A stretch of 64,000 nt of DNA from positions 248,001-312,000 of the forward strand of contig QPGO01000045.1 in assembly GCA_008632985.1 (NCBI GenBank). Reading direction: 5' to 3'. The notes beneath the pieces were generated by a model that had not been told where the DNA came from, searched no databases, and saw only the letters and a list, made by a program, of their open reading frames with translations. Below, one piece after another: positions 1 to 64,000 of the stretch (position 1 is its first letter; each line of letters begins with the position of its first letter). The stretch comes from Psammoneis japonica (Eukaryota). The translations under genes were made by a program, and so were the position numbers.

Positions 1-199
1 GTTTCACAAAAACAGCTGGAATGAAAAACACAAAGTGAAAAGCATCAAAACATGCAAATGAAAGCGGACATCAACATGTTGCAGCCTCTGATGATGGGAA
101 AGGCAAGAGGAATGGAAATTCATTCAGGACCCCTGTCCATTTTATGAGCTTGGTGCCATCAGAAGCAATGGCAAGAGATGCCATGTGTGAGACAGAAGC

Positions 200-1340: not shown

Positions 1341-2148
1341 CACATTTGCTGCATTTGATTTGTTTGAGAATGCACCTCAAGATTCAATCCCATGACCCAT
1401 CCCCAGAGGCAACAGAGAGATGTCTGCACCTGGAGAGCAGCAGCCTGGCAAAAGCCCCTCTCCACCACCCATGATGCACCCCAACGCAAACTTGGAATCA
1501 TCTGCAGTGCCCCACATGGTTGTCGCCTTTGCTTCCAGCATGCTGGTCCTGTCAGTCCCAACTGGGATTCAGCCAGTTTGGTGCCTTTCCGCAAGTGCGC
1601 ATTGGATGCCCATTTGTGCATTGGATGCCCATTTGCAGGAGACAAGTTGGTGAGTGACATTAGAATGAGTAACAACAAGAAGAAGCTGCTGCTTCTCAAT
1701 GGACAGTTCAGAGATGGAGTGCGCTCAACAGACAAAACCTCACACAATTGAGTTTGTCGAAAGACAACTGCGACGAGACGCGGTCTGCAAGAATTCGCAT
1801 CAACCGGAGCACCCTTTTATCGCACTGTGCTCCCAACAAGGCCACCACCGGCAACCAACACAATGACAAAACAGATCACAAGCTCTACTTGCACAGCACA
1901 AAACAAGAGGAGGCAGTTCCCACCTACATGATGCGAATCGAAAAAGAAGCAGCAGCAAGACCCGCCTGAGCAATGGCAAATTCTATGGCCACCATCGCAA
2001 TCACTTGCGAACGGAATAGAGTAACCCCCCAAAACCCCCGCTCTGCATTATATAATTTAGACCGCTGCTTTATTATGCATGAGTCGCAATGGTGAAGCAT
2101 GCGCTCGCAGTGCCGGTACATCCATTGGTCGTCCCTCTCTGTGCCCTG

Positions 2149-14960: not shown

Positions 14961-16299
14961 ATCCCTTGGTCGCAAAGGTCGAACTCCCCAGAGATCGCTC
15001 AGTGACTCCCATCTGCCACTCGGCACATTGCCTTGGTCTCTCGTGCAAGCAGGGTCCCATCAAACTGACTGCACCTGATGCTTTTCGAAGAGGTGGGTCA
15101 CGTGCTGGGATGCGCTCTGCTGCTGGCGCAGAAGAAGACCTTGTTCATGATGCGTGCACATGTGAGTGTCACTTGGCTGCCGCAACTCTCTTCTTTGTAA
15201 GTCAAGCTCCGTCTCTTTCCAGCTTGTGTCTTTCCTTGATGATGGCAGTGTGTTTTCTGCCGAGCAACGGGCACATGTGTGTTGTTTTGACGCAAAGTGC
15301 TCAAAACTAGTTGCACACCGTGTGGTCAAAGACAGCAAGAGGCAACCCTTGATCAAAATCTTTGTTCCATCACATTGGCATGAGCCGCCAACTGCCACGG
15401 TCCAAAGTTGAACTTGTTGTTTTTCCTGAACGCAAAACTCGAGATTGGAGTCCTCGTCTTTGCCCTCTCTTTTGGACACAGTGTGACTGCTCAAACCATG
15501 CTGTGCTTTTGGCACAACTTGCTGTGAAAACTGGTGCAAGATCCAGTTTCAAACAATGGACGACATGCATGTGGCAGCACTGGTGGTCTCATGCTGACAC
15601 TGCATGAGATCATGCAGGAAAAAGTCGGCGACTTTCATGTCTGTCATGGACAGGAAGTGAGTGATTTTTCTTGCTGGCAAACAAGGTGAGCCGCAGATTC
15701 ATGCTGGTGCCAGTTGTTGTGGAGATGGCTGCCAAATTGCCCCAAACATCAAGCACCCATGGAAAAGCATGCAAATGATCTGGGACACACGAAGCAACAA
15801 TTCATGAATCTGAGGAAGGATCTCCAAACTGAGCTTGCTCCATCGTTTCTTGCCAGCTCTGCACAAGATCATTGCTTTGCAGATCTGAGTTGGCCAATGA
15901 TGACTGCAGTTGCATCAATCGCAGAAAGATGCCATCCGCACGGCAGTTGTCATGATGATCCACCCAAGCAGCAGAAAGAGGAGCCATGACAATGTCTGCC
16001 ATGTCATCATCGGAAGCAACTGGCGGGGATTGGCAGGCTCTTGGAGGACCAGCCAAGGTTTCTTTCCATGCAGAAAATCTTGTTGTGGACTGGTGCTCTG
16101 CTCCATCATCCCAAAGAACAGTCCTGTCATCCCCCGTTTGCACACATGACTGAGCAAGCCTTGATGGCACCAACTGAATCAAAGGGCACCAGCAACTGTC
16201 CATTGTTGTCCTTCAGTTTTTCAAGGAAACAGAGCTGGCATCTCCAGGGACTTGTCAAGAATTTTCTCATCATGCTTGCACTGTTGTGCAGCTCAAATG

Positions 16300-19130: not shown

Positions 19131-19177
19131 TTTAAAAACGTGCCAAATGAAAATGCACACAAAACACAAACAAGAGC

Positions 19178-19719: not shown

Positions 19720-19741
19720 CATCTGGGTAAAAACTCACCCA

Positions 19742-21939
19742 GGGAGTTGCATGAAATGTCAAAATTTTCGTTTTTCCCTGCAAAAACGCACAGAATGTCA
19801 GAGAGACCTGCCTGCACGTGAGTGCCGCCACAGTCTGCACGATGCTGCGAAAGTTTGTGCACTTGCCACCAAAACGCTGCTCGCACTTTTTGCCAGGGGA
19901 CATGCCACAGACACACAATGTTGCATTTGGCTGCAGGACAAATCCTGTGTTTTTGGGGCTCTGTTTGATTTGACAAAATGTCGAAATTCCATGGAAGGTT
20001 TCTCAACAATTGCCTTTTTTCCCAACCAGTGCTGAGACAAAATGCCCCCAGAAATGCAGGTGGTTGTGTCTTCACCAGACCCCGCCAAAATTTCTCGTTG
20101 AGAAGACAACCCACTGGATGGAATGAGAATGTTTAAATGATGTTGCACAGTGCGTGAAAAATGACAACCTGCACTCACTCAATTGGGTTGGCATGGTGAC
20201 ATCAAGCACTGAAATGAACGACAAAACGGTGCGATAATCGATGATGACGACACCTTCTATCGGTGCCTGCCTGTGCGCTCATTTTCTACTGTATTCAAAT
20301 TTGTATATCCATATATACATCATAAGTAGTTGCCATGAGCACATCACGTTGTCGGTCACGGCGTTTCTGCACGCATGATGATACGCATGGCACCGTACGA
20401 CTGCAAGAGACGCCGTTGAGTTCCCTTCTCGATCCCGAACTCCGATTTGAACCAGTCACGACTGTCTCAACCTCATCGCTTCGTGCGATAGTACAATTTC
20501 AAATTCAAACCCGCCAAATAGCTCCAACCGCCAAAACCAAAAAAGGCCTCTTGGGGGGGACTGGGGCTAGAGACTATTTTGGATTATTGTCGTTCAAGAT
20601 TCCCTTGCATGCCGTTCCAAAAGCGTTCCAAAAGCGTTCCGAGAACGTTCTCATATGCACTAATTCGCGCGGAAATCAAACTTTGGAGCCGGTCAATTCG
20701 CCAATGAGACATATGATGCATTGTAATTAGTGCACTATTGTTAGAACTATTTGAGTATGGCACAATAGTGTAAAAGTTTAACAGATTATATGGATTTATT
20801 GCAAAAAGGTGCACCCGTCAAAACAGGTTTCTATTTTCTCTAAGAAAAAGAACGGCTGGTAGAAGTCTCAATAATTTTGAGTTACAGTGGCTGTGAGTTG
20901 AACTATAAGGGTGTGTTGTAACCACTGGTATTGTTTGACAATAAACCACATCTATAACAACCGCCAATAGCTCCAACACGGAAATACCATTCGACGAAAT
21001 AGGCATTTCGTCATTCCCGTGTTTCCACCGTTCCGGGACCGTACCAAAAGCGTTCCGAAACCGCACCAAAAGCGTTCCCGAAGGGAATCTCTCTAAAAGG
21101 CCTAACATCAAAACATTGTTTTTAGACGTTGGAAACGAATGAGAACCCTGCCCGATAATACATGGAACCATCAATCCACCTACGGCAACAAAAACACTGC
21201 TGTATGGCAACAGCGCGGTGTCAATCATTTTAGCATAGTGTAAAATATCAAATGCGCAACACACGACTGTACTACTCACCATGCAAATGCGCCTGCCCAG
21301 AGCCACAGTAGATTGTCTTGCAAGGACAGTCATTCAGAGGCAGACAAGATCGGAATGGATTTGGAACCAATGGGTTCGCGTCATACTTGAGCACTTTGCA
21401 GGACATACAGTAGTGTGCGAGTTGTGGGGCCTTCTTCAAGATGAAGGCAACCTTTCTCATGGGTTCCTGCCCACTCACTTGTTGTGTGCCCTTGTTTTCT
21501 GAATCTGCATTGTTCTGAAACCATTTTGCCGGGAATCTGTGGTGGAGCACACGAAGACACGATAAGAAAATGGTTTTGTGTCGGAATAGAGTTAATTGTA
21601 AATCTGGACTTGTTGCGTACCATCATTCCAATCTCTTTTTGAAAATCAACGTACTGGCATTAGCTTCACCATCTTATCATCTTAGATTGACTGGTAACAC
21701 AGGTTTATGGATGATAATGGCATGCACGGTGACGGTGGACGGCACTGACTTTCGCTTCGCATCAACGAACCATCGCCGCGTTCGCCGTTCGACCCCATCT
21801 TCTATCTGGTGTCTGGTGTTCGCATAGCCCAAAATGCAACGTTTTAGGGGATGTGTAAAATGAATTATCGTCACGAAAAAACACGAAAAACCACGAAAAA
21901 CAGGGAAAAACGAAAATTTCGACATTTCATGCAACTCCC
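19742..21939. mobile_element. Putative non-autonomous TIR element (39-bp inverted repeats)
   Basis: 19742 gggagttgcatgaaatgtcaaaattttcgtttttccctg is the reverse complement of 21901-21939 with one mismatch (CA vs CG). Internal repeats ccaaaagcgttcc and aaccgccaa(a)tagctccaac are present. No TSD was seen. Confidence 0.6.
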
Positions 21940-22193
21940 AGCAGGATCCGCGAGGATTGAGTCGTCGAAACCGTCGAACTCTTGGGGAGCTCCGACTACC
22001 ATGCTACTGCCCGTACCGGTATGTTCAGTTCTGCTTCAATGTTGGGGGGCATGTCGTAAGGAAATGGATTTTGTAGAAGCTGTAGTCTGTAGAACAACTG
22101 CATATATTTACTAGATCTAGGCCTAGAGATCAAACCGAACACCTTCCAAAGTAGTCGTCTTAAAGATGTATATGCGTCCCAACGAATTCATCA

Positions 22194-31374: not shown

Positions 31375-31402
31375 GGTGACTTGTTGTGACGGATCGGACA
31401 GG

Positions 31403-32504: not shown

Positions 32505-32932
32505 ACCTACCAACTTTCTCGCGGGGGTTCCTGGGGGGATAAAAGTTCTCCATTGTGATTCCTGTGACGCCATGCTTCTCGCCATTGCGTTCCAGGGGGG
32601 CTACAAACTTTCTCGCAGGTGTTCCTCGGGGGATGCAATTTTTTGCGCGGGGGTTCCTGGGGGGTTACAAAGTTTTCCATTGTGTTTCATGATGCTAAAA
32701 ACTTCTCGCGTTTGCGTTCATGGGGGGCTACAAACTTTCTCGTGGGGGTTCCTTGGGGGCTACAAACTTTTTCGCGGTGGTTCCTCCGCGCGATTGTGTT
32801 CCTTGGGGACTGCAAGCAAACTTTGTCGCTGTGGTTCTGCTGACCACACAAACTGGCAGCTGCTGCAGAGCCAGGCTGTTGGGCCCCACTTGTTTCCCTT
32901 GCATTCCTGGGGGGGGGGGGTGCAAACTTTGT
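32505..32932. repeat. Degenerate short tandem repeats of about 30-35 bp, likely subterminal repeats of a transposon
   Basis: Repeated ctacaaactttctcgcgggggttcctggggg-like units at about 32507, 32601, 32633, 32728, 32760 and 32920. Confidence 0.7.
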
Positions 32933-35900
32933 CGAGCATGACAGCTCTGATGGTTGGGAGGAGGGTGTGGGCAACTCAGGACAATCAATTGAGAGCAACA
33001 TGGAAAAGTCAACAAAGAATGACAGAAGTGCAAAAAAGCTCAAAAGTGACAATGAAAGCCTCTTTGTGGACTTTCAGATTCAAGGAGACCACAGTCTGCA
33101 AATCAAGAAAACCAGGCTGCTCTTTTGAAATCTTCTTTTCGTCGGAGTCGCTGCTGCTTCCGCACCCCTGAACAACGCTCCCTGCGTTGACGCATGCCTT
33201 GCAGTGATCACACTGATTTGTCATCAAACAATGTTCCAATTTTCCAACAGCTGTGCCTGGTCCCAAACATTGCTGTGGTGTCAGCATTTTAATGACATTT
33301 TCAACTCAACTCACAGCCATCGTCAATGTCTTGCTTGTCTCTTGCCAGCGCTTTGACCTTGAGCCTTGTTGTCAATGTGGTCATCCCATGTCATCTTCAA
33401 GAATGCATGGCATTGGTCAGATCAATGAGGGTTTTCCCAGTGCTCACCCAAGTTTCAGTCATGGAGAAACAAGTGTGGCGTCAAGGAGCAAATGGGAGCG
33501 GCAGTCTGCATTTTCTCATTGCTTCCTGATCATGACAAGACTGCCCTCAAACATGTTTGTCTTTGGCCTTGCCTTGCTCTTGGATTTTTTTCTCTGGCAG
33601 AGGGACAAGCACACACGTTGCTTTTTGTTGCTTGCCTCCTGTGCATCCACAGTCGCATTGGCGGCAACCTCAAAAGACTCAATGTGATCATAAAAAGCCA
33701 CTGACATGTCCTGCACAATGCAGCAGAGATGATCTCCACCAATGTTTTTAGAATGCTGCAGGAGCAACTTGTCAACGTTCCTCGAGGCATTCCAACTTTC
33801 AAGAGTGCTCAATTCTTCCGTCACGTCAACTGAGCAAGGGACGTTTTCATTGTTGATCTGTTCATTCACACTGTCACAGAAAAGCCAAGAAAACGTTGGA
33901 TCATCATTGGCGGTCAATGGCAATTGGACTTCAACTGCATCATCAGTTGCTGCATCCTTGGCAGCCAAAAAGCCACATGCGCACATCAACGCTGATGGCT
34001 TGTTGCAAACACACGCGTGTGCAAAACAAAATGGCTCATCCCAACAATGATGAGAGCCTGCAGCTTGTGCAGCAAGCCTTCATTGGAGGAGGATTGCCAC
34101 AGCCAAATGAGTTCAAGTGTGGAGCTGGGATTGGAGCAACATTGTCCAATGCTCTCTCTTTTGTTCCATGCCACAGCAGCTGCAAAAATGTGGAAGAGCC
34201 TGACTTGACAAAGATCAAGCCTTCCTGCTTTGATGAATCCAACAGCAACTCTTCAAGCGTCAATGCAGTGCCAGCATTTGATTTCTTGACAGCGGGCGGT
34301 GGCAGCTGCAACATGCTTTGGCCTTCATCTGTGAACTCTCCCAAGCCCTTTGGAGTGTGCTTGTTCTGAACCAGTCTCTTGGCTGGCTTGATGCAAAAGT
34401 GAGCTCACCATTTGTGCTGTCACTCCCAAAGGTCTGAAGAAGAAAGTTGACAAATTCGCGCGCTTCTTCTTGTTGGAAGCAGCTGTCAAAGTCAACTTGG
34501 GCACCAAACCACCCACTTGTCATTCAGCGCCATTCAATCATTGTGTCTGCAGGACAAAACCTCAGCGCCACAAGCTGGTGACAATGTGCAGAGAAAAGTG
34601 CATTGGAGCACATTCCAAATTCACTTGGTCAGTTCTCACTGTTTCTCTTGTGCTGATGTTGCCACTTGGGGATCTCAGCAAGTTGTCAAAGCTGTCACTG
34701 TGACAAAACATTGCCATGGTGACAGAATCAAGAAAGGAAGAATTGTTTTTGCCTTGAATGCCTCATTGGGCACCAAGCCAATCTGCCATTGTCTCTTTGA
34801 CCAAGGGAGCCACGTCAAAAGAAAATGGCTCACAGGGAGGTGACAAACTGCTCTCTTCTTGATGTGTGCTTTCATGTGTGGGATGGACCAAGAGGTTGAT
34901 GGGTCTGTGCACTCATCATGCTGTGACTGCACCCTTGAACATGTTTGATTGTGTGTGTCAACCAGGGAAATCCTGACCTGAAGCACTGCAAACCAAATTG
35001 TGGTCATCCACTGATTCCACAGGAAATTGCCTTGATTGTTGGTCATGGGAATGTTGACATTGCCAACAGCCAGCCCCTTTTTGCAGCAAAAAGGGAGCTG
35101 CAAAAAAGGCAGCTTCTTGCAGTGACTGTGGCTTTGACCTCTGCACCAACTGTCTTGCTGCTTGTCATCCCAGAAGTGCTTGCCACTCCAAAAGGCGCAC
35201 CCTGAATGACCAGCGGCAAAATTGGATCATGTCCGGAAAAAGCACCTGCTGGCACGCTGGTGTTGAAATGAGGAGAAAGCTGAACAGGCCGCTGGTGTGA
35301 AAAAAAGCGGGTGGGCACCATCCCATGTGCAGAGGTGCAAGACCAAGAATGGAAAGCTCAAAAATGCTGTCACTGTGTGCATTGTGAATGCATCACAAAC
35401 CAGTTGGAAGGTTGCAGCATCATGAGCTGCCTGGTTGGGACTTGCATCAGCAGGACAATCTGCTGGCAACTGAGATGCAAGAGAATCAACCAACGGTTTG
35501 GACCTCACAGGAGGACAGACCAGCATCCTGCATTGGCAAGACAGCTTGTCTGCAAGTTTTTCATGAAACAAAGAAGAGTTGCAAACAAGAAGAGGTGTCA
35601 AAATGTGAGATGAAGACCATGTCCGGAATCAAAAGCAGCGGTCTTCTCACACACCTGTCCTTGCCAGAAAACAATCATTGTGTGTGTCCATGCCGCTCCA
35701 TGTTGGGCTTCCCATCAACGGCAACTTTTCTCCATGTTGCGCTTTTGCCCATGGCAACATCAGCAACAGTTTTGAAGTCATCATTCAATGCATCTTGCAT
35801 GCTGTGGAGAAGAGCATTGCTCCAATCTAGCTGAGGTTTTTGACACCAACTTTCTTGCTGTTCTTGATTCTCTGACGACGGCATGGACCCATCCAAGTGG

Positions 35901-37058
35901 CATGAGCCACATTTCTGCATGGCAAGCACAGCTGGATCAACATGGTTTGTCTCTTGCAATCAACTTGCAGCATGGTTGTGCGACAAGTCCTTGTTGTTCA
36001 CATTCAGGCTGCCCACAAAAATTGAGTTAATCAGGGGCAACATCTCATCCACTGCTGTTGTTGTCATTGTCAGCGCAGATGCTTCTTGGGGCTGCTGGTT
36101 GCAAAAGTGTTCATGAGGACTGCAAACAATGTCAGATGATGCCATTTGGATGAACATCAGCCTCACTTCCAAGTCTCAATCATTCACTCCAAGCAGCAGT
36201 GCATCTGGTCATGCAACTTTTCAGACAGTCAGTTGCTGCAATGTGAGCATGATCTGTTGCTCTCAGCAACATTGTTGTGGACCAGAAGCATTTCAACACA
36301 GAGGGTTGGCGAAGATGCAAGTTTCAATCAGCCAACACTTGAATGTCGAGTGCAGCTCAGCAGGCTCCGGCAGATGTGGCAGCTGGATGTTCAATGCTGT
36401 GTGTGCACAGATGGATGATGCACCAGGGTTGCATGCAGGTGATGTGTCAATGCAGCGCATGCTCATTTTCTCTGTTGTTTGACTTGAGGAGCAACTTTGT
36501 GCTGAAAGACCCCATCATGGGACAAATTTTCTGCCAAATGAATGCATTGATGAGATGCCATTTTTCAGCTTGACCTTTGCTTGCCTTTTTGCAGCCAATG
36601 GTTTGAGTCAGCAGGCGCCAAAAGCATGGCAAATGATTGGTGGGTGCAGAGTTGGCAAAAGCAACATGGCATCTCCACCAATGACCAAATTGGTGTGTCT
36701 CAAAAATTCTTGAAAGACAGTGGGTTTCTGGTTGGACAGTTGAAGCTGATGAGGATCCAACAGAGCTGCCCTTGCAATGGCTGCAAATGACGCAATGCAT
36801 GATGATTGTTGTGGACATGATGATGTCGACCTCAGAGCCCTTGCCTTTGCATTTTTGATCTTGCATCTTCTGCCAGCTCTGTGACAAGATTGAGGCCCAA
36901 TTCAGCCACAGCGTGCAGCTGCTCCAGCACTGTTCTCCAGGCCAGGTTGTTGTTTTTGTGATGGCACTCAGAGACATGCAGTGCATCTGTCATCCATGAT
37001 GTTGGCCAAGCCCACAAAACCTTTGCTGGTTTGTCAATTGACTCCTGTGCTGACAAAA

Positions 37059-37413
37059 GCATTGCTGAGTTTTCTGCCAAAGTGCCCCATCTTTTGCCAA
37101 GATCCTCCAGACTGGGTGCACACTCCCAGCGATGGTCAGGTCTGACCTTTTGAAGAAATGCACTGTTGAGACACATCTGGCAAGGCATTTGATCATGCCA
37201 ACAATTTTGCCAAGCTGGAGACAAGGTTGCTGCTGTGGAGTGCATTGCTGAGTTTGCTGCTAAAAAGTGCCTTGCATCTTTTGCCAAACAGGTGCACACC
37301 CCCGGCAATGCTCAGGTCTGACACCTTTTGAAGAAATGTGTGAAGACATCTGGCAAGACATTTGACCGTGCTGGCAATTTTGCCAAGCTGGGGACAAGGT
37401 TGCTGCCATGGAG
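37059..37413. repeat. Diverged tandem repeat, about 180 bp x2
   Basis: gcattgctgagttt...catcttttgccaa...caggtctgac...ttttgaagaaatg...aattttgccaagctgg.gacaaggttgctgc occurs twice. Confidence 0.8.
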
Positions 37414-37657
37414 GGCAAGTGCCAATTTTGAATCATCTGCACTGCTTGTCCAGAGGGCTCTGAAATTGTGGCACTCTGGCTCTGATTGTGTGCACACCAC
37501 ATTTTGTTGACAGAGCACAGCACGCTCTGTGCTGAAAACAACTGGCATGTGTGCACCAGCAGTGTTTTGTGTCTTGATGAGGATGGGGTCTCCTGCATGG
37601 CTGGGGATGCCCAGAAGTGCACATTGTGCCAGCCCGCACAGTTTGCACTCACTCCGC

Positions 37658-37880
37658 TGAGTGCAGAGATGCATTGACGTGACTCCATGCCATGAGGATC
37701 ATGCATTTAGCTGCCTCCCAATGCCGCACCTGGTGAGTGAAGGCTCTGTGCACAATGCTGTGTCAATGAGTGCAGAGATGCATTGACGTGACTCCATGTC
37801 ACGAGGATCATGCATTTGGCTGCCTCCCAACATTGCACCTGGTGAGTGAAGGCTCTGTGCACCACGATGCTGTGTCAATG
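37658..37880. repeat. Tandem repeat, about 110 bp x2
   Basis: tgagtgcagagatgcattgacgtgactccatg...ggtgagtgaaggctctgtgcac..atgctgtgtcaa at 37658 and 37767. Confidence 0.9.
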
Positions 37881-39495
37881 TGCTGTTTTGCACAATGTTT
37901 GCTGAGAACCAAAACGAACTTGGAGCAAAGATCTTTGTTTTTGAATGAAGCACATGTGTGTGAAACAAACGTGAGCAACTCACCCAACCAAACATTTCAC
38001 AGCAAAATGAGCCAACTCAGAACCAGCAGTTCTCACAGCTGTCAACAAGAACAGCAATGATGTTTGCAGCTGCTCAATGTCCATCCCTCAACCCAGTGCA
38101 TGAAGCAAAAGGTGTGGGTGTGGTCTGGATTGTTTTGATGGAAGTCAGCACATTCTGTCATTGAAGCTTCTTTGAGAGAGAAGCTCCTTGAGAGAGAACA
38201 TGCCAGTGCACACATGCTTGGGGCACCTGCATTGTGCGGCACACTTCCATGACACATCATGCAAAAAGTGCCATGGCTGAGCAGCAAGCAGCATCAGCTG
38301 CATTGTTTTGGCAGCAAGAAGGAGGATGGACATTTGATTTTCTTGATTGAGCACAGAGCCCTCACTCCTGACTCTGAACACATGCCTCAGAAGCTTTCTC
38401 TCCATTGCTTGATGATCGCAACAGAAAAGAAAAGGAGAACTTGAGTGTCACATTGTGGCAAGGTGCAGATGCTGAAAGACCACGTGCAAACAAGGCTTTC
38501 CCACTTGATTTTGCAGTCATTTCAAGTTTTGCTTGCACGAGACACCATGAAAATGTTGATTTGGGAACTTCCACTGGACTTGATGGATGACAAGGTTGCT
38601 GCAAAAAACATCTTTCCCATGTTGTGTGTCACAAGAAAATGCAATGATCACTTGTTGGCAAAGACATCTTGGCTGGGCCCACAGCACATTCTTTGATGCC
38701 AAAACAAAATGCAGCCAAGAAGATGATTTGGCATTCATCAGATTTCATGGTTGAGAGGGGAAGAAGAAGAGCTCCACAGCTCACTCACTCCCTGCCGCTC
38801 ACTCACTCATTCACTCCAACAAATCTCTTTTGGGTGGTGTGACGCTGGCCTGCATGTCTTGGCAGTGCTTGGCAGTTGGCACCTGCAACATGGCCAGCAA
38901 TGTGATGGTTGTGAAATGCTTTGCCTTTTCAATGCATTGGGGCCATGCCTTGGGCAGGTGCTCACCCAGCTTTTTGGCCCAAGGTGAAAGGGCAAAAAGA
39001 AAATGATTGTGGGGGCATGGCGCAGCAGCAGCAAGCAAAATGTGTGCCAGTTTGTGGACGAGAGAGGAAGAATCTCATTTCTGTTTGAAGCTAAAAAGGA
39101 GATGTGGCTGACAACCAACCTGGCCACTGCATGTTTGGATGTGTCGCTGCGCAGGCAAAAACTGTGACGAGGCCTGGTCAGTGCTCTCCCCCAGCTGCGG
39201 CTGAAGCGGCAGAGTGCATGTCATGAAGACGTCCATGCTTTTTCAGCACAGGGTTGTTGCAACATGTCATGCAATGATGGAATCTGGCATTCAAGACAGA
39301 CTGACGGTCTGTTGAAATGAGCATGTTTGTCAGCCAGGACATCAAAGTGCCGTGAAGGACTTCGGTGAGTGTGTTAGAGCCATGCAGTTGCATCATCATA
39401 ATATCTCTATCTGAAAAATGTAGCGGTCGTCGGTCGTGCGTCGGTCATCGGCTTATTTCGGCTCAAGGAACCACAGAGAGCACCAAGCACCAACC

Positions 39496-50652: not shown

Positions 50653-52749
50653 ATTGGGTCGAATGACGGGCCCGTAGACTAGCAGGAGATGCCGTTTCAA
50701 TGACGAGAAAATGTTGCTACACAATCTTAAGTTCCATTGCTATGTACGGTAGGGATAATCGTGTTTGTGATGTGCTATCTAGTTCGAATCGTTGTCATCA
50801 CTGTCTTTGCCTTCGTCTTCCTCAAGATCAAACAGATCCACAGTGCCTTCTCTTTGTTCTAAACACACCTCCAATCCGACGTATGAGCCACTCATCATCG
50901 TTCTTCCTGTTTTCGACGACGAATGACTACCGGTAGCTGCGATTCCAAATCGACTCTTTGCAGATGTTGCGCTGTGTATGTGGACATTGATAAAATGAGA
51001 GCAACAACAAGGTGTGGGGATTTGCTGCACGCTGGTAGATTTTACAATACATACCATAGGTTGAACTTACTCGTGGCAAACACCGTCCGTCGTCGACTGT
51101 GGAGTCGTCACCTTTTTCTTGCATGGGCTGAACGTTGACCATGCCGTGTGCATCCGACCAGTCCGACACCAATGTACCACCCAAGATTTCTTTTCTGTTA
51201 CAGTATGATGGACTGGGATCACTTGGAACACAGACACAATCGCAACTCCGTGGATACTGTTTCGTCAATGTTGCGGTGCACCAAAAGGGTCCTCTTCAAC
51301 AGAACCACTATCCGAAGCTGACGACAGAGAGCTCTTGCCGCCATTCAACAATTACAGATTTCCTAGACATGGCAGTTTAGATAGAGGTGGGCCGAAGCGA
51401 CTTTTAAGGTAGTAGTCCATATTAGCTTCTTCGATACATGCTCTCCGCTGGCACTATCTCCTAACTAAGCGGAGTACAAACAAGTCGGATAGAATCGCTT
51501 TCTTCCAAAGACTTGTGACACCGATTGCGATAATAGCAGCCCAATGACGGCTTAGCGAAAGAGCCTTGTCGGTACTACCGTACTATGTTGAGAAGGTGGC
51601 GAAAGAAGAACCCAGTAATATCGTCAGTTTGAGCGGCCACGTCGTTTTCAATTCCGATTCTTGTGGGGATCACAACAGCGCCACTTGCCGATGGCAAATT
51701 GAAACAAATCTATGCCACAGACTCTGTAACCACAAACTCTGTAAGAGAACGCCTGGGCTGTTCAAAGTTCAAAGACTTCATCGGCAAGGCGATGTACACT
51801 CTGCTGGCCGCGTTGACGATTGTGGGCGTTTCAATCTGAGATTTCTCTTGGCCTCCTGTGACTTAAACAAATGAGATCAGCAAAGCTCGTGTGAGCTACA
51901 ACCAAGCTTAACAGCAACCACTCTTACAAACGACAGACCCGCAGCAAGCTCACAGTTCAAAAATCTCCCTCGGCTGAATTTGGAGAACGGGGACGCAGTG
52001 CATGAGGACAGTCGCCAAGCTTCTAGAAAAAGTGCTCCTAATTTTGGATCCGCACCACACAAACACAAAAATGTGTTGTTAGACACATTGCTGCATTGAT
52101 GGCTTGGTTCGCTCACCAACAGTGGCAATCCCAACAAAGATTCAGTGACGCTTGCGCTGGTGCTTTCTTCCCCAAAGCACTCTGCACTTGTTGAAACTGG
52201 TCAGCGGCACATGCCTTTTCTTGTAGTTTCCTCGCAAGGCCGAGTCCTTCAATGCACCCTTGGCCTTGAAATGTGACGCAACTGGCCTCAGCAATGTCAT
52301 CAAATCTGCCAGGAGGGCAATCCAAAATTGAATTGTCACCAAGAGTGCAACACTGGTGCATGCCAACTCCTCAACAGCCTTGGGTTTCTTCATCCAGAGC
52401 CTTGCTGCATGAGTCTCCAACATGGCAAACAAAAGCCTGGGCTGGAGCCAAAAGCCCTCAACAAGCTTGGGATTCTGCTTTGGCAACCACACTGCAGAGT
52501 GAGTGCTCCAATCACCACACCAGCCAATCATTCACTTGAACAATCCCCCAAAGAATTGATTCATGGCAACAGATGATGCAGGCATGTCCTTGACATTCTG
52601 ACCAGTGTGAGCTGAAACAAAACCTGGTGCACACGGTCTTGTTTCACTGAGCACCTTTCAAGCACCAGTGGCTGGATGAGGTTCAGCAACTGTGCATCAT
52701 CAAGTGGGTGAAACACTGCCCACAGGGATGCCATGCAATCTTGTCTAAT

Positions 52750-53510
52750 CATTTTTGAGTGGCTTGCACATGCTTTGTAATTTTGCAATGTGGACAATTT
52801 GACAGTGATGTCAGTGGGCACAAAGCACAGGCATGTGCATGGACAGCCTGCTTGTCATCACAAAAGGCACATTGGATGACCACACAAGAAGGTGGGCACC
52901 ATGCTTTCTTGAGAAGCTTGAAGACACTGGGCTTCAGGTGTCAGCACCTCAACATTGCTGTTCTGTGGAGTGGGCTTGTTCTTTGACTCAAGAAAAAAGG
53001 TTGAGAAGTGTTGCCGGGCCAAAAAACAAGAAAGAACTTTGGTCATTTGGCGGCACAGTGAGCTGCTGCCAAGATGCATGGTTGCACAGATCGGACATTT
53101 TGGCATCCCTTGCAAGACTTGCAGGCTGGGCCATGAAATGGGAGGTGACTTCTGGCCATTGAAAAAGAAGTGCTTCTAAACTGTCAAGTGAGCAAAACAT
53201 CAGAAGAGATGCTTCTTGCATCCAGGATTTGACAAACTGTTTGAAATCTTTGCCATTGGCTGCATTCAAACATCAACCCAGAGCAGCAACATCTCAAGAC
53301 AAAAACCTGTCACACTTTGCAGCATCAAACAGCTGAGTGGTGCTCAGCTGACTTGTGCAACAGCAGAGCAAGAATTGTTTGCAATTTTGACACTCTGAAA
53401 AGTTCAGATCCACTTTCTGTGGTCATGATTGTTGCACCATTGTGCACACGGATCACAAAAACCTCATGTGCAGAGCATTCAAAGCTTGGCATTAAAAGAA
53501 TGCAGGCCTG
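52750..53510 (+). mobile_element. Ty3/Gypsy pol relic (RT and RNase H)
   Basis: CMDSLLVITKGTLDDH (YxDD), KLEDTGLQVS, PKNKKELWSFGGTVSCCQDAWLHRSDILASL (..VNYYRD.W..RS.ILAPL), HPGFDKLFEI (YPDF), SGAQLTCATAEQELFAI and VHTDHK (VYTDHK). Confidence 0.85.
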
Positions 53511-53899
53511 AGCTGAGATGTGCAAAAGGCCATCCCAATTTGATTGCAGGCTGCTGTCTCAGCCATCTCAACCCAAGCCAGGCCAACTTTTGACTCTAAA
53601 AAATGTTGCCCAACAGCTGCAGAAACACACACCTGAAGTGCATGATCTCAACAAGGCCTTTGCAAATGAAGAAAGGGAGATTGCAACAACTCCCACCAGG
53701 TTTGACAAAAGCCAACTCAAACAGCCAAAAAATGGTCACCTGTTGCAAAACAGTTGCATTTTGCATGACTGTTCTGCGTGCAGAAATTCTGATGAGAAAT
53801 GAGAAATGTCCAACAGATGGCTGTTTTGTTGATGAGACAAAATTTGAGTCACAAAATCAATCTCCTGTGTGGGAGGCTTCTGGTAAAAAAGGTGGCAGA

Positions 53900-55480
53900 G
53901 ATTGTCCCTTTGAAAGCCCTTTGCATTGTTCAGAGATGTGATTGTCAGAGAAACCTCTGGTGGAAAAGTGTGAGTCAACAGAAAAAGTCACTTCTGCCAA
54001 TGTTTTTGCACTCACAACTTCTGAGCACATTCTTGCTTCATGTCCCAAAAAATGACCTCAAAGGGGCAAGCACAATTTGGGTGGCTTGCTTGACTGCAGT
54101 TGTGGTGGAAAAGCCAAATCTAGGCAGGAGGCCAAGAAGCCTGGTGGCAAAGTGTCAGCCAGGAGAAACAAAGTCACTTCCATCACATTGTTTGCACTCT
54201 CAGCATCTGAGTGCACTCTCCATGTCCCAAGAAACAAGCTCAAAGGGTTGAGCACAGACTGGGTGGTTTGTTTGGCTGGGCTGCAGAGCTGTGGTGGCAG
54301 AACAGCCTCTGGTGGGTGGGCAGATGTGCGGCTGGAGGCAAAGTGTCAAACCACAGAAAAAGTCACTTCTGCAAACATGTTTGCAGTCTTGGCTTCTGAG
54401 CACACTCCTTGTGTCCCAAGAAACATGCACAGAGGGTTGGGCACAGCTTGGGTGGCTTGCTCAGCTGCAACTGTGGCAGCAGTGTGAAATCTGGGCAGCA
54501 GGCAGAAAAGCAGCATGTGGTGGTGGGAAAGTGTCAGTTGGCAGAAACAGTCACTTCTGCCAACTTGTTTGCATTCTCATCTTTTGAGCACACTTTTCCT
54601 GTCCAGAAGCATCTTGTCAAATGGTTGAGCACAGTTTGGGTGGCTTGATTGGCTGCAGTTGTGGGGTCAGACCAGCCTCTGGGTGGGAGAAACTCCTTGA
54701 GGAAAAGTGTCAAACACAGAAAAGTCACTTTTGTGCCAATGCATTTGCAGTCAAGGATTCTGAGCACACTTTCCCTGCACCAAGAAACAACCTCAATGGG
54801 CCCAGCACAGTTTGTGGGGCTTGCTTGACTGCAGTTGTGATGGCAGAGCAAAGTGTCAGCAGCAGCCAGAGAGATGTCTGATGTCGAAGTGTCAGCAGGC
54901 AAAAAAATTGCTTTTGCCAAATTTTCTGCACTCTCAGCCACTGAGCACACTCTTCATGTCCCAAGAAACAACATCAAATGGTTGAGCACAGTTTTGGCAG
55001 CTTTCTTGACTGCAGCTGGCTTTGGTGGCAGAGCAGCCTCTGGGCTGACAGAAATGCCTGCATGCAAAAAGTGTCAAGCAAGCCACAGAAAGCAAAAGAG
55101 TCACTTCTGCTCTGAGCACACTCCTTGTGTCCCAAGAAACATGCTTGGGGGTTGGGCACAGCTTGGGCAGCTTGCTCAGCTGCAACTGTGGTGTCAGTGT
55201 GAATTCTGGGCAGCAGGCAAAAAGCACTGTGTGGTGCGAAAGTGTCAGTTGGCAAAAAAATTCACTTCTGCCAAATCATGTGCACTCCCATCCACTTGGC
55301 GCACTTTTCTTGTCCCAGAGCATCTCAACACATGGTTGAGCACAGTTTGGGTGGCTTGTTTGGCTGCAGTTGTGGTGGCAGAGCAGCCTCTGGGCAGGCA
55401 GAAACACACTTGGAGGCAAAGTGTCAAACCACAAATGATGAAGTCACTTCTGCCAGTGTGTTTGCAGTCTTGGACCTTAG
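53900..55480. repeat. Diverged tandem array, about 185-bp unit, about 9 copies
   Basis: The anchor aaagtcacttc recurs near 53984, 54171, 54359, 54548, 54721, (54906), 55097, 55259 and 55441, each followed by tgagcaca..tgtcccaagaaac..gcacagtttgggtggcttg..ctgcagttgtgg. Confidence 0.88.
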
Positions 55481-55499
55481 ACTCTGATCACACCATTTG

Positions 55500-57100
55500 C
55501 CCAAGGACACCCAAGCTGAGCTGGGCAGCCATCACAAGTGCAAGGATTGAGTTGCATTGCAACCCAACCAACAGGAACAAGGGGCTCCAATGTAAAATGG
55601 CACATGGTCCCACCAATGCTCCAATGCCGCTGATGCAGTTGGGCCAATCTTCACAACTGGACTTCAACCAAAGAACTGGGAACATCGTTTTGGTCTTGCA
55701 GATGACACACCCCCCTGGCTCAGCTTTTGAAGGGATTCCCTCACAGCACATTTCCTGTCACCAACTGCACTTTTGGCACTTGCTTCTCTGGCTGTCATTT
55801 CCAAACATTCCCGTGAGTGACTGTGCTTCACCACACATTTGTTGTCATCTGTGACCAAAGCATCAGCTCCAACATTCCTGTCTTCATCATTGGCTCCCGC
55901 AACAGTTGCAGAGACTGCATTTCTTGATGCATGAGAACAATTCAATGTGGGGTCCAACTCCATCAACCTCTCCTTTGCTGTGTCCAGGTGCTCCAAAGCA
56001 CGGTCAAAGACAATGTTTTTGCATCATGGGCAAACACAAACAACAACCACAGTGCCAAAGTGTGTTGATGTTGTTTGGCACACCCGCGTGTGCACCCCCC
56101 AAATCACAAGCCACGCCTGCTGCAGTCCATGTCACAGTTTTTCAACCATGCAACAAACTCTTTCCCAAGTGAGCGTGGGTTGTGATTGCAGCATCTTGCT
56201 CAGAAGAAGCAGAGAAATGTGCACGGCAATTTTCTCAGCCTCATTGTCAATCATCACATTGCAAACTCTGCCTTCAATGGACGTTGTTCAGTTGTGCCAC
56301 AATGATCTCCCTGAATCTGGTTGTTGAACTTGGATTGAAGATGCTTGGAGCAGCAAGAAGCAGATGGCATGAAGATGCTGTTGGGCATTGACTCAAATGT
56401 CTTGTGTGATGCATTTCGATGCGATGATTTTTCCCAAGAATGGCCACATGAGGAGGATGGCAGTGCAGCTTTTTCAAAGTTGGAATGTGGTGTTTTATCA
56501 CAAAGACCCCAGTTGTTTGTGGAACCTTGTCAACAAGGTCTTTTGTTTGACCTTTGTGCCCTTGTTCCCATCTGGATTTGCCCCACAAACAAAACATGCT
56601 TCAACGAACATGCCGTGCTTTGAACACAACATTTTGCAGTTTTTTTGGACATTGCTTGGGAATCAAAAAGCAAAACATGGTGTCACCAACAAGGGTCTTG
56701 CCGTTGGCATCATGGGCATGTTCAAATCCGCCAGAGCCCACAGGCTTGACATGTTGTTGTGGAGCTCATGCACAGTCATGTTGCACAACCATTTGCTCAC
56801 TCATTTTTGCCTCATTTTTCATCTTTGGTGAGAACCATGCATCTCTTAATTTGGGAAACTGCGCCATGCCAGGACAATTTAAATCAAGGCACAGGCGCTT
56901 GTTGCTCCTGAGTGGCGGCACAGGACAAGATGCCATCTCTTGTTTTGACCATTGCAGGATGAAGTGCTGGTGTTGGGGGATCTTTGTGGGCTTCATTGAG
57001 GGTGTGAGGATCAAAAGTGAAGAGTTCTGTGGAGGGTTTCAGGTTGACAGGAGTTTGGCCAGTGGGAGCAACAGAGGGAGTGACAGTGAAAGTGCACATG
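55500..57100 (-). mobile_element. Relic of a DDD-type (possibly Sola-like) transposase
   Basis: Minus-strand fragments IPTLKKLHCHPPHVAILGKNH, KHLQSKFNNQIQGDHCG and FGAPGHSKGEVDGVG (HGK..DG motif, about 55954-55998). The superfamily assignment is tentative. Confidence 0.5.
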
Positions 57101-57324
57101 GGAATAGCTCATTACCCATTCGCTGCCGTCCACCGATACATGTGCATCTATTAGGGCCCTATCGCCTCCAACGATCGCAGCAGCGCGATAGATCGCGAGG
57201 ACCGCAAGCATCATTCAATCGAAATCGCTCTGTTATTTGACGATGTTGTAGAGCTGAAAGCAACAACTACAACGACTCGTCTACGAACCTCTCCCGTATA
57301 ATCACAGCCAAGCTGTATTGAATC

Positions 57325-59554: not shown

Positions 59555-60199
59555 CACGTACGCCAAACTGTCTGGAAGATTTGATGGTTGTTCTAGAGTA
59601 GTCTCCACACTGCTTGTCGACATACTAAGTATAGTTAGTTTGTGTTAACCTGGTGAATTACGATGCGGTGGAAAATCGCTACCGGTAGCAACGGGGCCGC
59701 CGCAAGCGTTTAGCCCCCCCAACACCGACATCAGCATGTGCCACTTGACGAAGTCGAGAAACTTGTTTCTGTGTTCTCGAATAAATTGGGTTCGCCTAAA
59801 CTATAGAGGCATGTGACTGGCTGTGTAAGTTTGCTGCAATCCACTAGACCAGGATAGATCAATAACCTTGCTCACAACAACAAAAGTTCCTAGGGTTTCT
59901 TTTGTGTCTTGGAGGAAACATCAAATGAGTAGAGGCACGTCTTGGGGTGCCGGCACACCGTGAGGTGCGCTTCAGTTTGTGTGACTCGCTGACACCTCGT
60001 TACCGCAAATTATGGACTGACAACAGCCCTAGATTGATGAGGTGCAAGTCGTTCTCATCCTTCTCTGTAGATCCGTAGGCCACCAGAAACAAAAATTAAG
60101 AGACAGAGACCGAGAATTGAAGTTGTTTTTGTTTGTTTGTCATGCCGGTGCTGTAAATGCATGATGCATCAACACCAGATGTCAACATGCCTTTCTTTG

Positions 60200-63100
60200 G
60201 CACACAGCCTTAAGAGTTGTCCGCACAACATTCCAGCCTCCTCGCTCACATTCCAGTCGCATGCTCTCCATGACACTAAGATTTGCCCCATCCCACTGCC
60301 GAGAAGTTGTGGTGTGGCTTCCACAATTCAGGTGGGGTCCAGAGGCGCCACTCCATTTTGCCCCGCATGCCGCAAAAACCACCGAGTGGGTCTTCATGGC
60401 TGCCAAACCAATCATTGCGCCAGGAGCGTCATTTCGCACAACACGTGCTGTCATGTCATGACAGCCCAACAAATTTGCCACGATTGCAAAGCACGACGCC
60501 AGAGTGGTGAAGACATCCCACAATGCACGGTCACATGGGACACAACCCAACTTCCATTGGATTGCTGCCTTGTGGACACGGAGACGAGTTTCCCATGTTC
60601 CTGACTCACAAGGCTGCAGTTGACAAAGAAACAGTGCTGGACCTGATGCGTCCAATTCATGATGAAGGCATGCGGCCCGTAGCACTGTCCAACCTGCTCC
60701 TTGAGTTGCATTCTAAAAAACACTTCTGCGAGCACATCAAAAGGGAAAACAGGTGCAGACGTGACAGGCGGTCAAACCCCGCGACACAAAGAGAAATGTG
60801 CTCTTCATTTGCCGGCAAATCTGGCTGTGATGGTCTTTTCCCTGCAGGAAAGCATCTGGAGCATGTTCACAAGGAACACCACAAAACCGTTCGCCCCCAC
60901 CTTGACAAGGAAGCAAAAAAGTGGGGAGCCCATCGCCTGCACATTGATGCATCGTACAAAGAAGCAAAGCATCTTTGTCAGTGTCATGGCAACCTGATTT
61001 TTAAAGTGCTGGTCACTTGCACAAATGAATTCGGAGAAATCAGAGTGCAGCATCACGTTGTTTCTGACAGCCATGCCCAGATGAGGAATGCCATGGCAGG
61101 GTTTCTCAATGCCGTCAAAGCACGCAGGCAGGATCCCATCGAGGTGGTGTTTGCGGACAAACCCGGCACAGACAAAGCTTTCCTGCTTGAGACTGTTCCA
61201 TCCTTGAGGCAGTTTGAAGACCTGCACAACAAGAACATTGGTGCTGCACAACAGGATTCAACCAGCAACACTGATTTTCCAACGTGCATTGCGGACTTGC
61301 GGGACATCTGAGTCGTGCACAGCGACTCGGAGACAAATGCCATGGTGGGTGCACTTCGAGATGCAACAAAGGAGAAACCAGAGAGTGAGAGGGCAATCGG
61401 AATGGATTGTGAATGGCCAGCAGCAAAGAACTCACGAGGAATGGCGGTGTCAAGCGGAAAGACTGGCGCGACTGAGCTTGCGCATTGCACTGATGATGGC
61501 TCAACCAAATGCCTCACAATCTCATGGGGAGAAAGAGACTGCATCCTGCCTCGTCTTGGAGCTTTCCTGAGCGACCCGGAGATTCTGTTTGCAGGCGTTG
61601 GAGCCACTGGCGACTTCAAGAAAATGGGCCGCGATTTTGGCTGCAACGAATTGACAAAAGAGACGGCAAATGTTCAGAATCTTGGGACATGTGCACGAAA
61701 GCGAGACGTTGTGCAGAACGGAACTGCCAGTCTAGATGCACTCGTGAGACTTGCCCTTTGCGAAACCTTGGAGAAGCCAGCCAATGTGCGACTCTCCAAC
61801 TGGTCAGTCCATCCATTGTCGCCGGAGCAGAATCAATGTGCAGCCGTCGACGCCATCAAGTCGTTGGAGGTTTGCCTGAAGCTGCAGGAAATGCCGGATC
61901 TCACAACAAGGTTGCTCCAAGAGGATGCAGTGGCAAATGCTGCAGCAGATGTTGTTCCCAGTCGGCCTGTTCCAGCTCCAGGTGATCCGCTTTTAATCAC
62001 GCGAAAGGCCGATTTTCTGCGCAGTTTGGCGCAATTGGCTCCTTCAATGTTGATCGTTTTGAAAATCGAAAGGCAAGTGTGCACCCGAAAACACATGTGA
62101 AGTGTGCACTTGCCCTTGGATTTGGCAAAAAAGGATTTTGAAAAAGTCAATTGCGCTAAATGCACAAATTGCCAAATGATGGGAATCGAACCCTCGCGGA
62201 GCACCTGGAGCTGGAACAGGCCAGTCTCGGAAGCGTGTCTTCCACAGCAACAAGAGCTCGATGGGGAACAACAGTTGATGAGTCAACAGCCGTTAGTCCT
62301 GCAAATTGCACGCCAGCTCAGATGACACTTCATTGTGCAACACGCACCTCAAGAGCAGTGCGAGTCAACAAAGTTGCTGCACCTCATCTCACAGTTCCTG
62401 GGTTGAAGACAAGTGCGGGTGACAAAGTGTGCCTTGGAGACTTTCGGCGAGGCTCCTTTTTCCATTGTGCTGCCGCTTTCCATGCTGAAACAACACGTCA
62501 AATCCGACGAGATCAGAGACGTCCCTGGCGCCAATCACGATCTGCCTGACAACAGCAACACACAAGGGCTGCGCCGGCACCTGCACCCGCACCACCAGCC
62601 AATCTGGAACAAGAAGATGATGAAGCAACTGACAGTGAGGAGTTCGAGTCAACCAATGAAGATGATGATGAAGATGTCAACTGCTTGTCCGAAACACTTG
62701 CCACAGCTGACATTGAGTGTGTGAGGCAATGTGAAGCTTCAGCCAGAGGTGCCTGGGCCGGTCAAGCATCCCTGTCACATCCTCACCTTGACGACCCACC
62801 TGAGACCGAAGAAATGCAAGACTTGTTCTCAGCCGTGAATGGAGACGGTTTTCACAGCATTGACAGGCCAAGAATGCCAGTCTGGCACATGCCAAAAAAA
62901 GCTTTAAAAGTGGTGCTTCGTGAGGCCGAACATGCGCGGAACCCACAGAAGCTGCAAGAAGCAAAGCAGGCGATGATTGAAGATGGATTCACCGAGAACG
63001 ACATTGAACTGGAAATGTGCCATCGAGTGAAATTCTTCCGAGACTGTGTCGACCATTGGAAGCTGCCACTGAGACAGTTGTGTTGGCAAGTCCGTGCTGC

Positions 63101-63612
63101 ACATGCGCTGTTGGGCGACAAAAAAGACGGTGAGACAGGACAGCCACTTTTCAACAAGAGGGCATGGAAGAAGGCAAACAGTGTTCTGAAAGCCACACTT
63201 GCCGGGTGCATGCCCGATCCTCCTGGAGTGCAGTCTCACACGCTGCGCCTCAACAGTTCAGGAGAACCATTGAAGAACAAGCACAGGTTTGGTCTGCTGA
63301 ACTGCAGCTGGGGAACAAGTGATGCAGAGTCCATGCACAAACAAATCGTCGCAACTTTCGGGACATGGTGCACCAGTGTTGAAATGTTGGATTTCAATCA
63401 TCGATGCTCAGAATGTTGGTGCCAGGGCTTTCCGAGGATTGGTCATTGTTTTGACACTTGGCTGACAGATCGGCTGCAACTCCTTGTTGAAGACAACCAT
63501 GGCACACCATTGCATCCCGAATGGACCAATTCAAGTGACTGCAAAAGCACGCCAGAGAGCTTTGACACAACTCCATTGCACAGTCAGGAACTGGCAAACG
63601 CTGTTGAAGGCA
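60200..63612 (+). mobile_element. Relic of a large transposase-like gene (DUF6729-like region) carrying a WRN/DnaQ-type 3'-5' exonuclease domain
   Basis: CPAC...CHDC zinc-finger-like segment, GDEFPMFLTHKAAVDK, IDASYKEAKHL, TNEFGEIRVQ, Exo I AIGMDCEW, Exo II GVGATGDFKKM, Exo III RLSNWS..LSPEQNQCAAVDA, then GDGFH, GQPLFNKRAWKKA and WGTSDAESMH. Stops and frameshifts are present. Confidence 0.65.
61964..62222. mobile_element. 259-bp MITE with 21-bp TIRs and 4-bp TSD (AGTC)
   Basis: ggcctgttccagctccaggtg (61964-61984) and its exact reverse complement (62202-62222); agtc at 61960-61963 and 62223-62226. Excision restores the host frame VVPS-LGSVSS. Confidence 0.9.
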
Positions 63613-64000
63613 GACATGCTCCAGCTCCAGGTGGGACCTCGTGCCACTGCACTGTGACATCAACAGTTTTTTGGATCACGTCGCATGTCGCGCACGTGCA
63701 TTTCTGCATGTCAAATTCTACGAAATTGTTTCACACTCCCTGTTTTGCAAAGCCAAAGGCTTTCTATTTTCATCATTTGTGAGAATGAAAATGCACTGGG
63801 TGTGTTCTTCAATGTCTGAAGAACACACCCGGGCAAACTGTCAATGATGTGCTGCAAGCATGAAGGAGGAGATGCATCCGCAAAGTTGCCTCTTTTTCTG
63901 TTGATGATCATTTGCACTCTCATTGCAGCACAAATTTGCTGCGGAGCTCGCACGCAGAATCGAACTCTGGAACAAGAGTGACAAGTTAAAGCCGGGTGAG
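63613..64000. mobile_element. Probable left end of a second element of the same TIR family
   Basis: gacatgctccagctccaggtg resembles the MITE TIR, and the host protein-like sequence appears to stop here. The other end is not seen in the window. Confidence 0.5.

Follow-up and report, generated by a model that had tools for sequence, protein, structure and literature searches.

Within a stretch of 64,000 nucleotides from the diatom Psammoneis japonica (contig QPGO01000045.1, positions 248,001 to 312,000 of the forward strand; hereafter the window), repeats and dead gene copies have lost nearly all of their TpA dinucleotides and, to very different degrees, their CpG. We analyzed the block at the right-hand end of the window, which is occupied by a dead repeat element encoding DUF6729 and a WRN-like 3'-5' exonuclease, together with related loci in the window and elsewhere in the genome. 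The best overall explanation, and in our judgement a probable one, is that two mutational clocks act on the same silenced DNA. That the two losses run at two rates in a shared domain is the part of this explanation that we regard as highly probable.

Segmentation of the window with a hidden Markov model revealed five sharp TpA-erased blocks (26,782 of the 64,000 bases or 42% of the window), with observed/expected ratios (O/E) of 0.02-0.07 for TpA and a rise to 1.5-1.9 for CA and TG, compared to 0.60-0.64 for TpA and 0.99-1.05 for CpG in the gene blocks. By contrast, CpG O/E in the TpA-erased blocks spans 0.13-0.72. An earlier note on this DNA had described positions 60100-64000 as almost free of TpA while retaining many CpG, and the counts bear this out (15 TA versus 233 expected, 0.06; 159 CG versus 252 expected, 0.63, with a 95% confidence interval of 0.54-0.74), although by O/E ~35-40% of the "retained" CpG is gone; in the segmentation, the low-TA state of this block begins at ~60278. 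The grouping proposed in the note likewise stands: TpA is erased and CpG retained at 10700-13300 (O/E 0.07 and 0.72, respectively) and 19140-20200 (0.08 and 0.64), whereas both dinucleotides are lost at 16000-19100 (0.03 and 0.17), 33000-39000 (0.02 and 0.22) and 52100-57100 (0.04 and 0.13), without overlap between the CpG confidence intervals of the two groups. As intermediate values also occur (0.52 at 13301-16000 and 0.32 at 1-1885), CpG levels form a continuum. Neither of the outcomes that the note considered incompatible with its proposal, i.e. an equally low CpG O/E in all blocks or a linear tracking of the two losses, was observed.

Three datasets indicate that TpA conversion is fast and early, as the note had claimed. 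First, in a young family of elements with terminal inverted repeats (TIRs), in which ancestral states were set by 7 of the 15 rows having at most five transversions, TA is kept at 82 of 83 sites and then at 60, 34, 28, 20, 17 and 13 of the 83 along these rows, while CG is kept at ~100% down to 91-98% and transversions number 0-3 per ~980 sites. Six distinct converted copies (L106 being excluded as the same copy as L115) together keep 137/480 TA and 465/487 CG, a loss-rate ratio of 27 (18-43), and their 5700 sites include only 4 transversions. Older copies, three in number and each bearing 19-21 transversions, keep 8-14 of 76 TA and 61-66 of 77-80 CG. Second, an alignment of 33 copies of a miniature inverted-repeat transposable element (MITE; window copy at 61964-62222), reduced to 32 by removal of L016 (near-identical to L017), shows 69 TA, 107 TG, 111 CA and no CG at nine ancestral TA sites, and 423 CG kept versus 68 lost at 16 ancestral CG sites, a ratio of 9.5 (7-13). 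Third, the dead kinase gene copy at 10700-13300, compared with two intact paralogs, retains 5 of 78 ancestral TA (40 are now TG, 29 CA, 2 CG and 2 other) and 71 of 95 ancestral CG (21 are TG/CA and 3 other), a ratio of 10. Rows L116 and L117, in which no TA site is covered, were left out of the counts. On the basis that TA is lost 10-30 times faster than CG, blocks that have lost TA and still hold CG should mostly be the younger ones.

We then compared 33 pairs of converted and intact sequences (25.7 kb), which are not independent because they include triplicate copies and common intact references. The TA sites of the intact members correspond to 96 TA, 455 TG, 426 CA and 17 CG, and conversion is thus strand-symmetric, as it is in the MITE; the CG sites are kept in 697 cases and lost in 486 (228 to TG and 258 to CA). 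CG loss rises with divergence (rho 0.48 versus transversions and 0.70 versus non-CpG G:C->A:T changes; n = 32 pairs, one of the 33 being left out for having fewer than eight CG sites), so that the decay of CpG with age is upheld as a trend, although age is not the sole factor. At 35438-36079, 0/22 TA and 5/33 CG are kept relative to the intact paralog, with transitions outside pyrimidine-purine (YpR) dinucleotides at 27/298 versus 27/954. Subfamilies and tandem units confound the family-consensus clocks of the old repeats, and no rates were drawn from these clocks. The intact pescadillo-region DNA (56642-58979) has a dead duplicate on another contig (C10, locus L196) that adjoins a copy of the 52-57 kb block. 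In this duplicate 6/72 TA and 55/109 CG are kept while the source in the window is intact; a copied host gene was therefore affected and its source spared.

The element of the right-hand block (coding match 60291-64771) matches intact metagenomic proteins of ~1500 aa that have DUF6729 and the WRN-like 3'-5' exonuclease, and dispersed copies at 68-85% identity occur in the genome; it is probably a DNA transposon. Its open reading frame (ORF) is interrupted by two inserts and by TGA codons, one of which (61309-61311) lies, by eye, opposite an Arg of the metagenomic protein P0001 and thus fits a CGA->TGA change. Of 24 Tyr codons that are conserved across ten homologs, 1 is TAY in the window copy, 9 are TGY, 11 CAY, 1 CGY and 2 other codons, and at 32 Arg codons conserved likewise it has 8 CGN, 11 TGN/CAN, 9 AGR and 4 others. 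Hence TA is kept at 1/22 Tyr codons versus 8/19 for CGN (11 of the 19 inferred CGN codons being lost), and two sister copies (C75 and C28) keep 3/21 and 4/24 TA versus 15/18 and 16/21 CGN. The corresponding rate ratios of 3.4, 10 and 6.4 for the three copies have wide intervals. Similarly, the short insert at 63613-63960 keeps 1/18 TA and 10/16 CG in its window copy. The long frames that had been noticed in this block are pieces of the one ORF (266, 262 and 410 aa from stop to stop) and do exceed chance, since the frames of 410, 266 and 262 aa lie above the 95th percentiles of a trinucleotide simulation (329, 255 and 218 aa). However, the loss of TAA and TAG by itself already yields a longest frame with a median of 231 aa, and a frame of 337 aa is present in the CpG-poor block at 52-57 kb as well, so frame length is weak evidence of youth.

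The order of events can be read from the triplicated segment that includes 10700-13300 and 16001-19140. CA/TG swaps among the triplicate copies are found at 53 of 595 YpR sites in the former and at 5 of 685 in the latter (p = 3e-13), and therefore the CpG-poor part was converted before copying and the CpG-rich part after it. These counts support age as a source of the CpG difference independently of any clock. An inherited state is also seen at the left end of the young TIR element (19742-20234, about half of 19140-20200), which was TA-poor before it arrived rather than made so in place, because 15 other copies at 96-100% identity have the same TA-poor state. Near-identical copies of this apparently still-mobile TIR element, 15 in number, thus have a left end that lacks TpA and is half CpG-decayed, indicating that erased DNA can be re-mobilised.

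Though distinct in rate, the two losses are not as "uncoupled" as had been claimed. Among 1100 windows of 500 bp (588 kb after de-duplication, a repeat-biased sample of the window and other loci of the genome), CG O/E falls below 0.5 in only 2 of the 323 windows with TA O/E above 0.4, and TA-poor windows span CG O/E of 0-1.16. Moreover, the losses co-vary across copies, TA kept being correlated with CG lost in the MITE (rho -0.64) and with CG kept in the young TIR family (rho 0.75). CpG is lost almost solely within TpA-lost DNA, and "different rates in one domain" is the more exact description. In young copies of the TIR family, TA retention did not vary with TpA in the single flank available (rho -0.01, n = 15), and among MITE copies it is overdispersed (variance 2.94 versus 1.41), for which age or bursts could each account.

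The change at TpA is a nearly pure transition with a defined sequence context. In young pairs the A of TA became G 291 times, C three times and T once. On the mutated strand the frequency of A->G is 0.62 for TAC, 0.48 for TAT, 0.34 for TAG and 0.27 for TAA. Accordingly, with R for purine and Y for pyrimidine, TA survives at 5/321 RTAY, 18/249 YTAY, 21/227 RTAR and 48/149 YTAR sites, and surviving TA in TA-poor windows are enriched for A at +1 (0.52 versus 0.22) and +2 (0.57 versus 0.28). Among the protective contexts suggested before, TTAA is one (26/70 survive), whereas CGTAC (2/56) and CGTAG (0/27) are not. Outside TpA there is a weak spill-over to (A/C)A(C/T), mutated at 43/1091 sites versus 12/2120 in other contexts (p = 2e-11). 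Same-strand runs below 25 nt were not seen (z from -0.5 to 1.3; p = 0.07 for the MITE), and a same-strand deficit at 60-150 nt across all pairs (z -3.2) may be pseudo-replication. At MITE columns 73-75 and 185-187, which are mirror sites, TAAC is replaced by TGGC in six of the 32 copies each, always with both A changed on the same strand; this could reflect either tandem bystander editing or subfamily inheritance.

In the explanation that we prefer, two clocks act on the same putatively silenced DNA, namely transposons, MITEs and dead host-gene copies. The first is a fast and strand-symmetric A->G change at TpA, with the preference TAC > TAT > TAG > TAA and the weak (A/C)-A-(C/T) spill-over, apparently delivered as many scattered single hits without strand-coordinated runs and taking out most TpA while CpG and transversion counts hardly move. 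The second is the decay of CG to TG/CA, ~10-30 times slower per site and presumably due to deamination of 5-methylcytosine (5mC) in CpG. As TpA saturates near 0.02-0.1 almost at once, differences from block to block are visible only in CpG, and these mostly reflect the time since silencing and partly the local CpG rate. For the first clock, the most likely chemistry is that adenine in DNA is deaminated to inosine by an enzyme with a TadA/ADAT fold, which would be recruited wherever the cell has silenced a copy; an adenine deaminase as the agent of TpA erasure is somewhat probable. The genome has nine matches to PF00383, one of them TadA/MafB19-like, and 27 matches to PF00145 (C5 DNA methylase), one of them DNMT3-like; DNMT5 was not confirmed among them. 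Several near-full-length C5 DNA methylase domains lie in open frames with broken copies nearby (C43, C10, C59, C78, C27, C297 and C301), and they are more numerous than expected and possibly repeat-borne. The genome also has 24 matches to the silicon-transporter family (best E-value 2e-208), which points to a diatom.

Several observations weigh against this account. Since the triplication, sites with CG in all three copies versus CG in two stand at 58:42, 40:40, 11:20 and 26:6 in four sub-blocks, with differences from the CpG-poor block at p = 0.04 and 0.0003. The CpG loss rate thus differs ~2-5-fold between sub-blocks over one interval, and age alone is therefore insufficient because the local CpG rate varies too. 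In addition, the rate ratio varies, being 27 in one dataset and 9.5 in another where TA loss is similar; distance to the intact paralog forms part of the divergence clock; the sample behind the 500-bp windows is repeat-biased; the MITE copies are those that matched the window copy best, 40 of 1271 candidates having been scored; and the TadA-like gene on contig C38 may encode a tRNA editor of the ordinary kind.

The unequal loss among sub-blocks and the inherited state of the left end of the TIR element would also be accommodated if the CpG differences between blocks were set mainly by local methylation or ancestral CpG content and not by age. We consider this unlikely, because the intact paralogs of both block types have CG O/E of ~0.75-1.2, conversion of the CpG-poor sub-block predates the triplication and CG loss follows both measures of divergence in the pairs. 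Moreover, the MITE has lost 14% of its CG both in CpG-poor (32/224) and in CpG-rich flanks (20/144), independently of flank CpG (rho -0.16, p = 0.39); a young insert in an old block thus holds CpG while losing TpA.

As to the base that is attacked in the first clock, TET/JBP enzymes can make 5-hydroxymethyluracil or 5-formyluracil that pairs with G, and methylated adenine can deaminate. A modified T of this kind, or a methylated adenine that deaminates later, would leave the same signature, as the palindromic TpA cannot separate A->G from T->C on the opposite strand and the spectrum is transition-only. Nevertheless, when the flank rule is read along the strand of the A (5' T >> A/C > G; 3' Y > R), it is similar to the preference of the TadA family, and we rate a modified base as improbable. 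TadA prefers UACG and TadA-8e prefers UA, according to the portions of the source available to us (PMC12296453).

A third possibility is that TpA loss is a by-product of methylation, in that T:G mismatch repair after 5mCpG deamination opens error-prone patches that mutate nearby TpA and restore CpG. The two losses are indeed nested and correlated, raw TA survival is higher at more than 12 nt from CG, and non-canonical mismatch repair with DNA polymerase eta, as described in the available part of PMC6423074, also mutagenizes A:T pairs, is triggered by deaminated C and has its somatic hypermutation hotspot at WA (W being A or T), which includes TA. In contrast to that system, AAR is almost untouched here (AAA mutated at 2/423 and AAG at 0/194 sites versus ~80% of TA) and transversions are nearly absent, so that polymerase-eta-like patch repair fits poorly. 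Furthermore, distance to the nearest CG had no effect once context was included (p = 0.84 for young pairs and 0.06 for all pairs), short same-strand runs are missing, and in lines of Bigelowiella natans 230 of 231 changes are A:T->G:C at TpA, going by the accessible part of a preprint (10.64898/2026.01.13.699255). We therefore hold such a by-product to be quite unlikely. The earlier contention that TpA loss is not a by-product of 5mC deamination is thus sustained insofar as an A:T->G:C change is no direct product of it, while 5mC could still play an indirect part, either by marking the target or by triggering repair.

It is very improbable that the retained CpG is largely new, having arisen through double conversion of TA to CG and hiding an equal decay. 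Such conversion does occur, as had been suspected, at 17/898 converted sites in the pairs and 4/124 converted Tyr codons, and CA/TG->CG gains exist too. However, the 851 CG in converted copies align to 693 CG, 17 TA, 93 CA/TG and 48 other dinucleotides, and none of 218 converted MITE cells is CG, which rules out double conversion as the main source of CpG. It is found only where a pyrimidine follows the A on at least one strand (16/753 versus 0/101), a restriction that agrees with the secondary (A/C)AY motif. Finally, a sequencing or assembly artefact, or selection for open frames, has a negligible chance of accounting for the pattern, since the copies of identical elements differ from one another by degrees and according to context, conserved Tyr codons are turned into Cys or His, and contigs of sequencing run X1, which may be the source sample, match long stretches of the block with 0-1 other letters. 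No TA at converted sites was seen in the X1 contigs (contigs of run X2 do not cover 59700-64000), and the 10 variant places in X1, mostly from paralogs, are too few for a spectrum. No RNA run is among those listed as containing this DNA.

Features of the window that bear on TpA and CpG loss (window coordinates)
Feature	Position	Strand	Remarks
TpA-erased block, intermediate CpG	1..1885		CpG O/E 0.32
Triplicated segment	10700..19742		copies on C47, C22, C55; sub-blocks differ in CpG level; used for event order
Host genes, dead copy (cNMP-binding protein kinase plus a neighbour)	10700..13300	+	intact paralogs on C257, C56
Older sub-block, TpA-erased before triplication	16000..19140		CpG O/E 0.17
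Young non-autonomous TIR element	19742..21942		left 490 bp TA-poor by inheritance; interior TA kept 77/83 in window copy
Block with both dinucleotides lost	32762..39374		intact paralogs for 35438-36079 and 32935-33359
Block lacking both TpA and CpG; old repeats in many copies	52081..57104
TpA-erased, half CpG-decayed block	60278..64000		low-TA state extends past window edge to ~65500; TA 12/220 expected (0.05), CG 154/242 expected (0.64)
Dead repeat element, one ORF of ~1500 aa, DUF6729 and WRN-like 3'-5' exonuclease	60291..64000	+	coding match to ~64771
MITE, 259 bp, terminal inverted repeats	61964..62222		4-bp target duplication AGTC; nested in exonuclease element; multi-copy
Second short insert, ~350 bp	63613..63960		left end like MITE end; unconverted copy on C2 (L104)

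Other observations concern the same DNA. The 3' tail of the exonuclease element is TpA-normal in several copies whose coding part is erased (L044, equivalent to window positions 65500-66043; L047 at 1802-2500; and L046 at 6001-6900). Elements of ~1500 aa with DUF6729 and a WRN-like exonuclease are present in several metagenomes (proteins P0001-P0010) and are possibly an undescribed family of DNA transposons; none of the papers listed in a literature search on this element class names DUF6729. The most decayed DNA of the window lies at 53960-56000, where repeats several hundred bases long, some tandem and some dispersed, have CpG O/E of 0.0-0.2. The myosin gene (5802-6560 and 6511-7401) has a short duplicated stretch and frame breaks, perhaps through assembly error, and the contigs of run X2 omit two introns of the pescadillo gene. 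An assembly gap of 377 N at ~31400-31780 presumably falls within a proteasome-subunit-like gene region.

Our search of Creative Commons papers in PMC and of bioRxiv found no report of TpA erasure in a diatom and only one comparable case, the preprint on B. natans. According to the available part of its text (Mettrop et al., bioRxiv 10.64898/2026.01.13.699255), integrated DNA from large DNA viruses of the nucleocytoplasmic group (NCLDV) and from virophages is hypermutated at TpA, at ~1000-fold the normal rate and in some lines only, and ADAT2 is proposed as the agent. Both systems show local and near-pure A:T->G:C change at TpA on both strands of foreign or putatively silent DNA with TG and CA outcomes, clustered TpA depletion (here in repeats and dead gene copies), and long-term TpA loss with CpA and TpG gain; an ADAT-type deaminase is proposed there. 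They differ in that the preprint, as far as its accessible text goes, reports strictly TpA in a short experiment, whereas the (A/C)AY spill-over here comes from long-term data, and in that the host here is a diatom (a stramenopile) in which transposons, MITEs and dead host-gene copies amounting to 42% of the window show near-complete erasure, a TAY > TAR flank rule and a paired decay of CpG. The words "CpG" and "diatom" are absent from the portion of the preprint's main text available to us.

Repeat-induced point mutation (RIP) acts premeiotically and depends on RID/DIM-2. From what the available part of PMC2621366 describes for ascomycetes, it resembles the process seen here in that repeats are killed by transitions that hypermutate a specific dinucleotide on both strands, but it runs in the opposite direction, making TpA from CpA/TpG where TpA is here destroyed, and it mutates both duplicates, whereas here the intact paralogs that served as sources escape, and copies that are nearly identical are damaged to graded extents. 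RIP was rejected as an explanation on the basis that TpA is destroyed, CA/TG->TA changes number only 16 cases and intact paralogs persist. Spontaneous deamination of 5mC turns CG into TG or CA, and the CG losses observed here resemble such decay in having both outcomes in near-equal number, on both strands, in repeats and rising with divergence. Diatom transposons are CG-methylated by DNMT5 in the account that could be consulted in PMC9998398; together with 5mC deamination this would account for the slow CG clock and cannot remove TpA.

Taken together, the results separate two mutation processes whose outcome is TG/CA in either case and give their relative speed, order and common target, and the mechanism is narrowed in that TpA erasure is neither simple 5mC decay nor polymerase-eta-like patch repair. 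The window contributes the rate ratio in three datasets, a graded young family, the order of events around a triplication and a bound on double conversion. For this genome the result provides a two-clock dating of repeats, TpA for the earliest phase and CpG for the later one, and an enzyme search could readily use the MITE and the young TIR family as reporters. Tentatively, and with more doubt than confidence, we hypothesize that in this diatom new insertions and duplications are met first by a host DNA adenine deaminase, which would find each copy separately without spread from neighbours and ahead of any CpG methylation, removing most TpA before methylated CpG decays, and that this "reverse RIP" defence, a natural DNA adenine editor, may be common to stramenopiles and Rhizaria. 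If it exists, a natural adenine deaminase of genomic DNA would be relevant to base editing and to the way in which eukaryotes defend their genomes.

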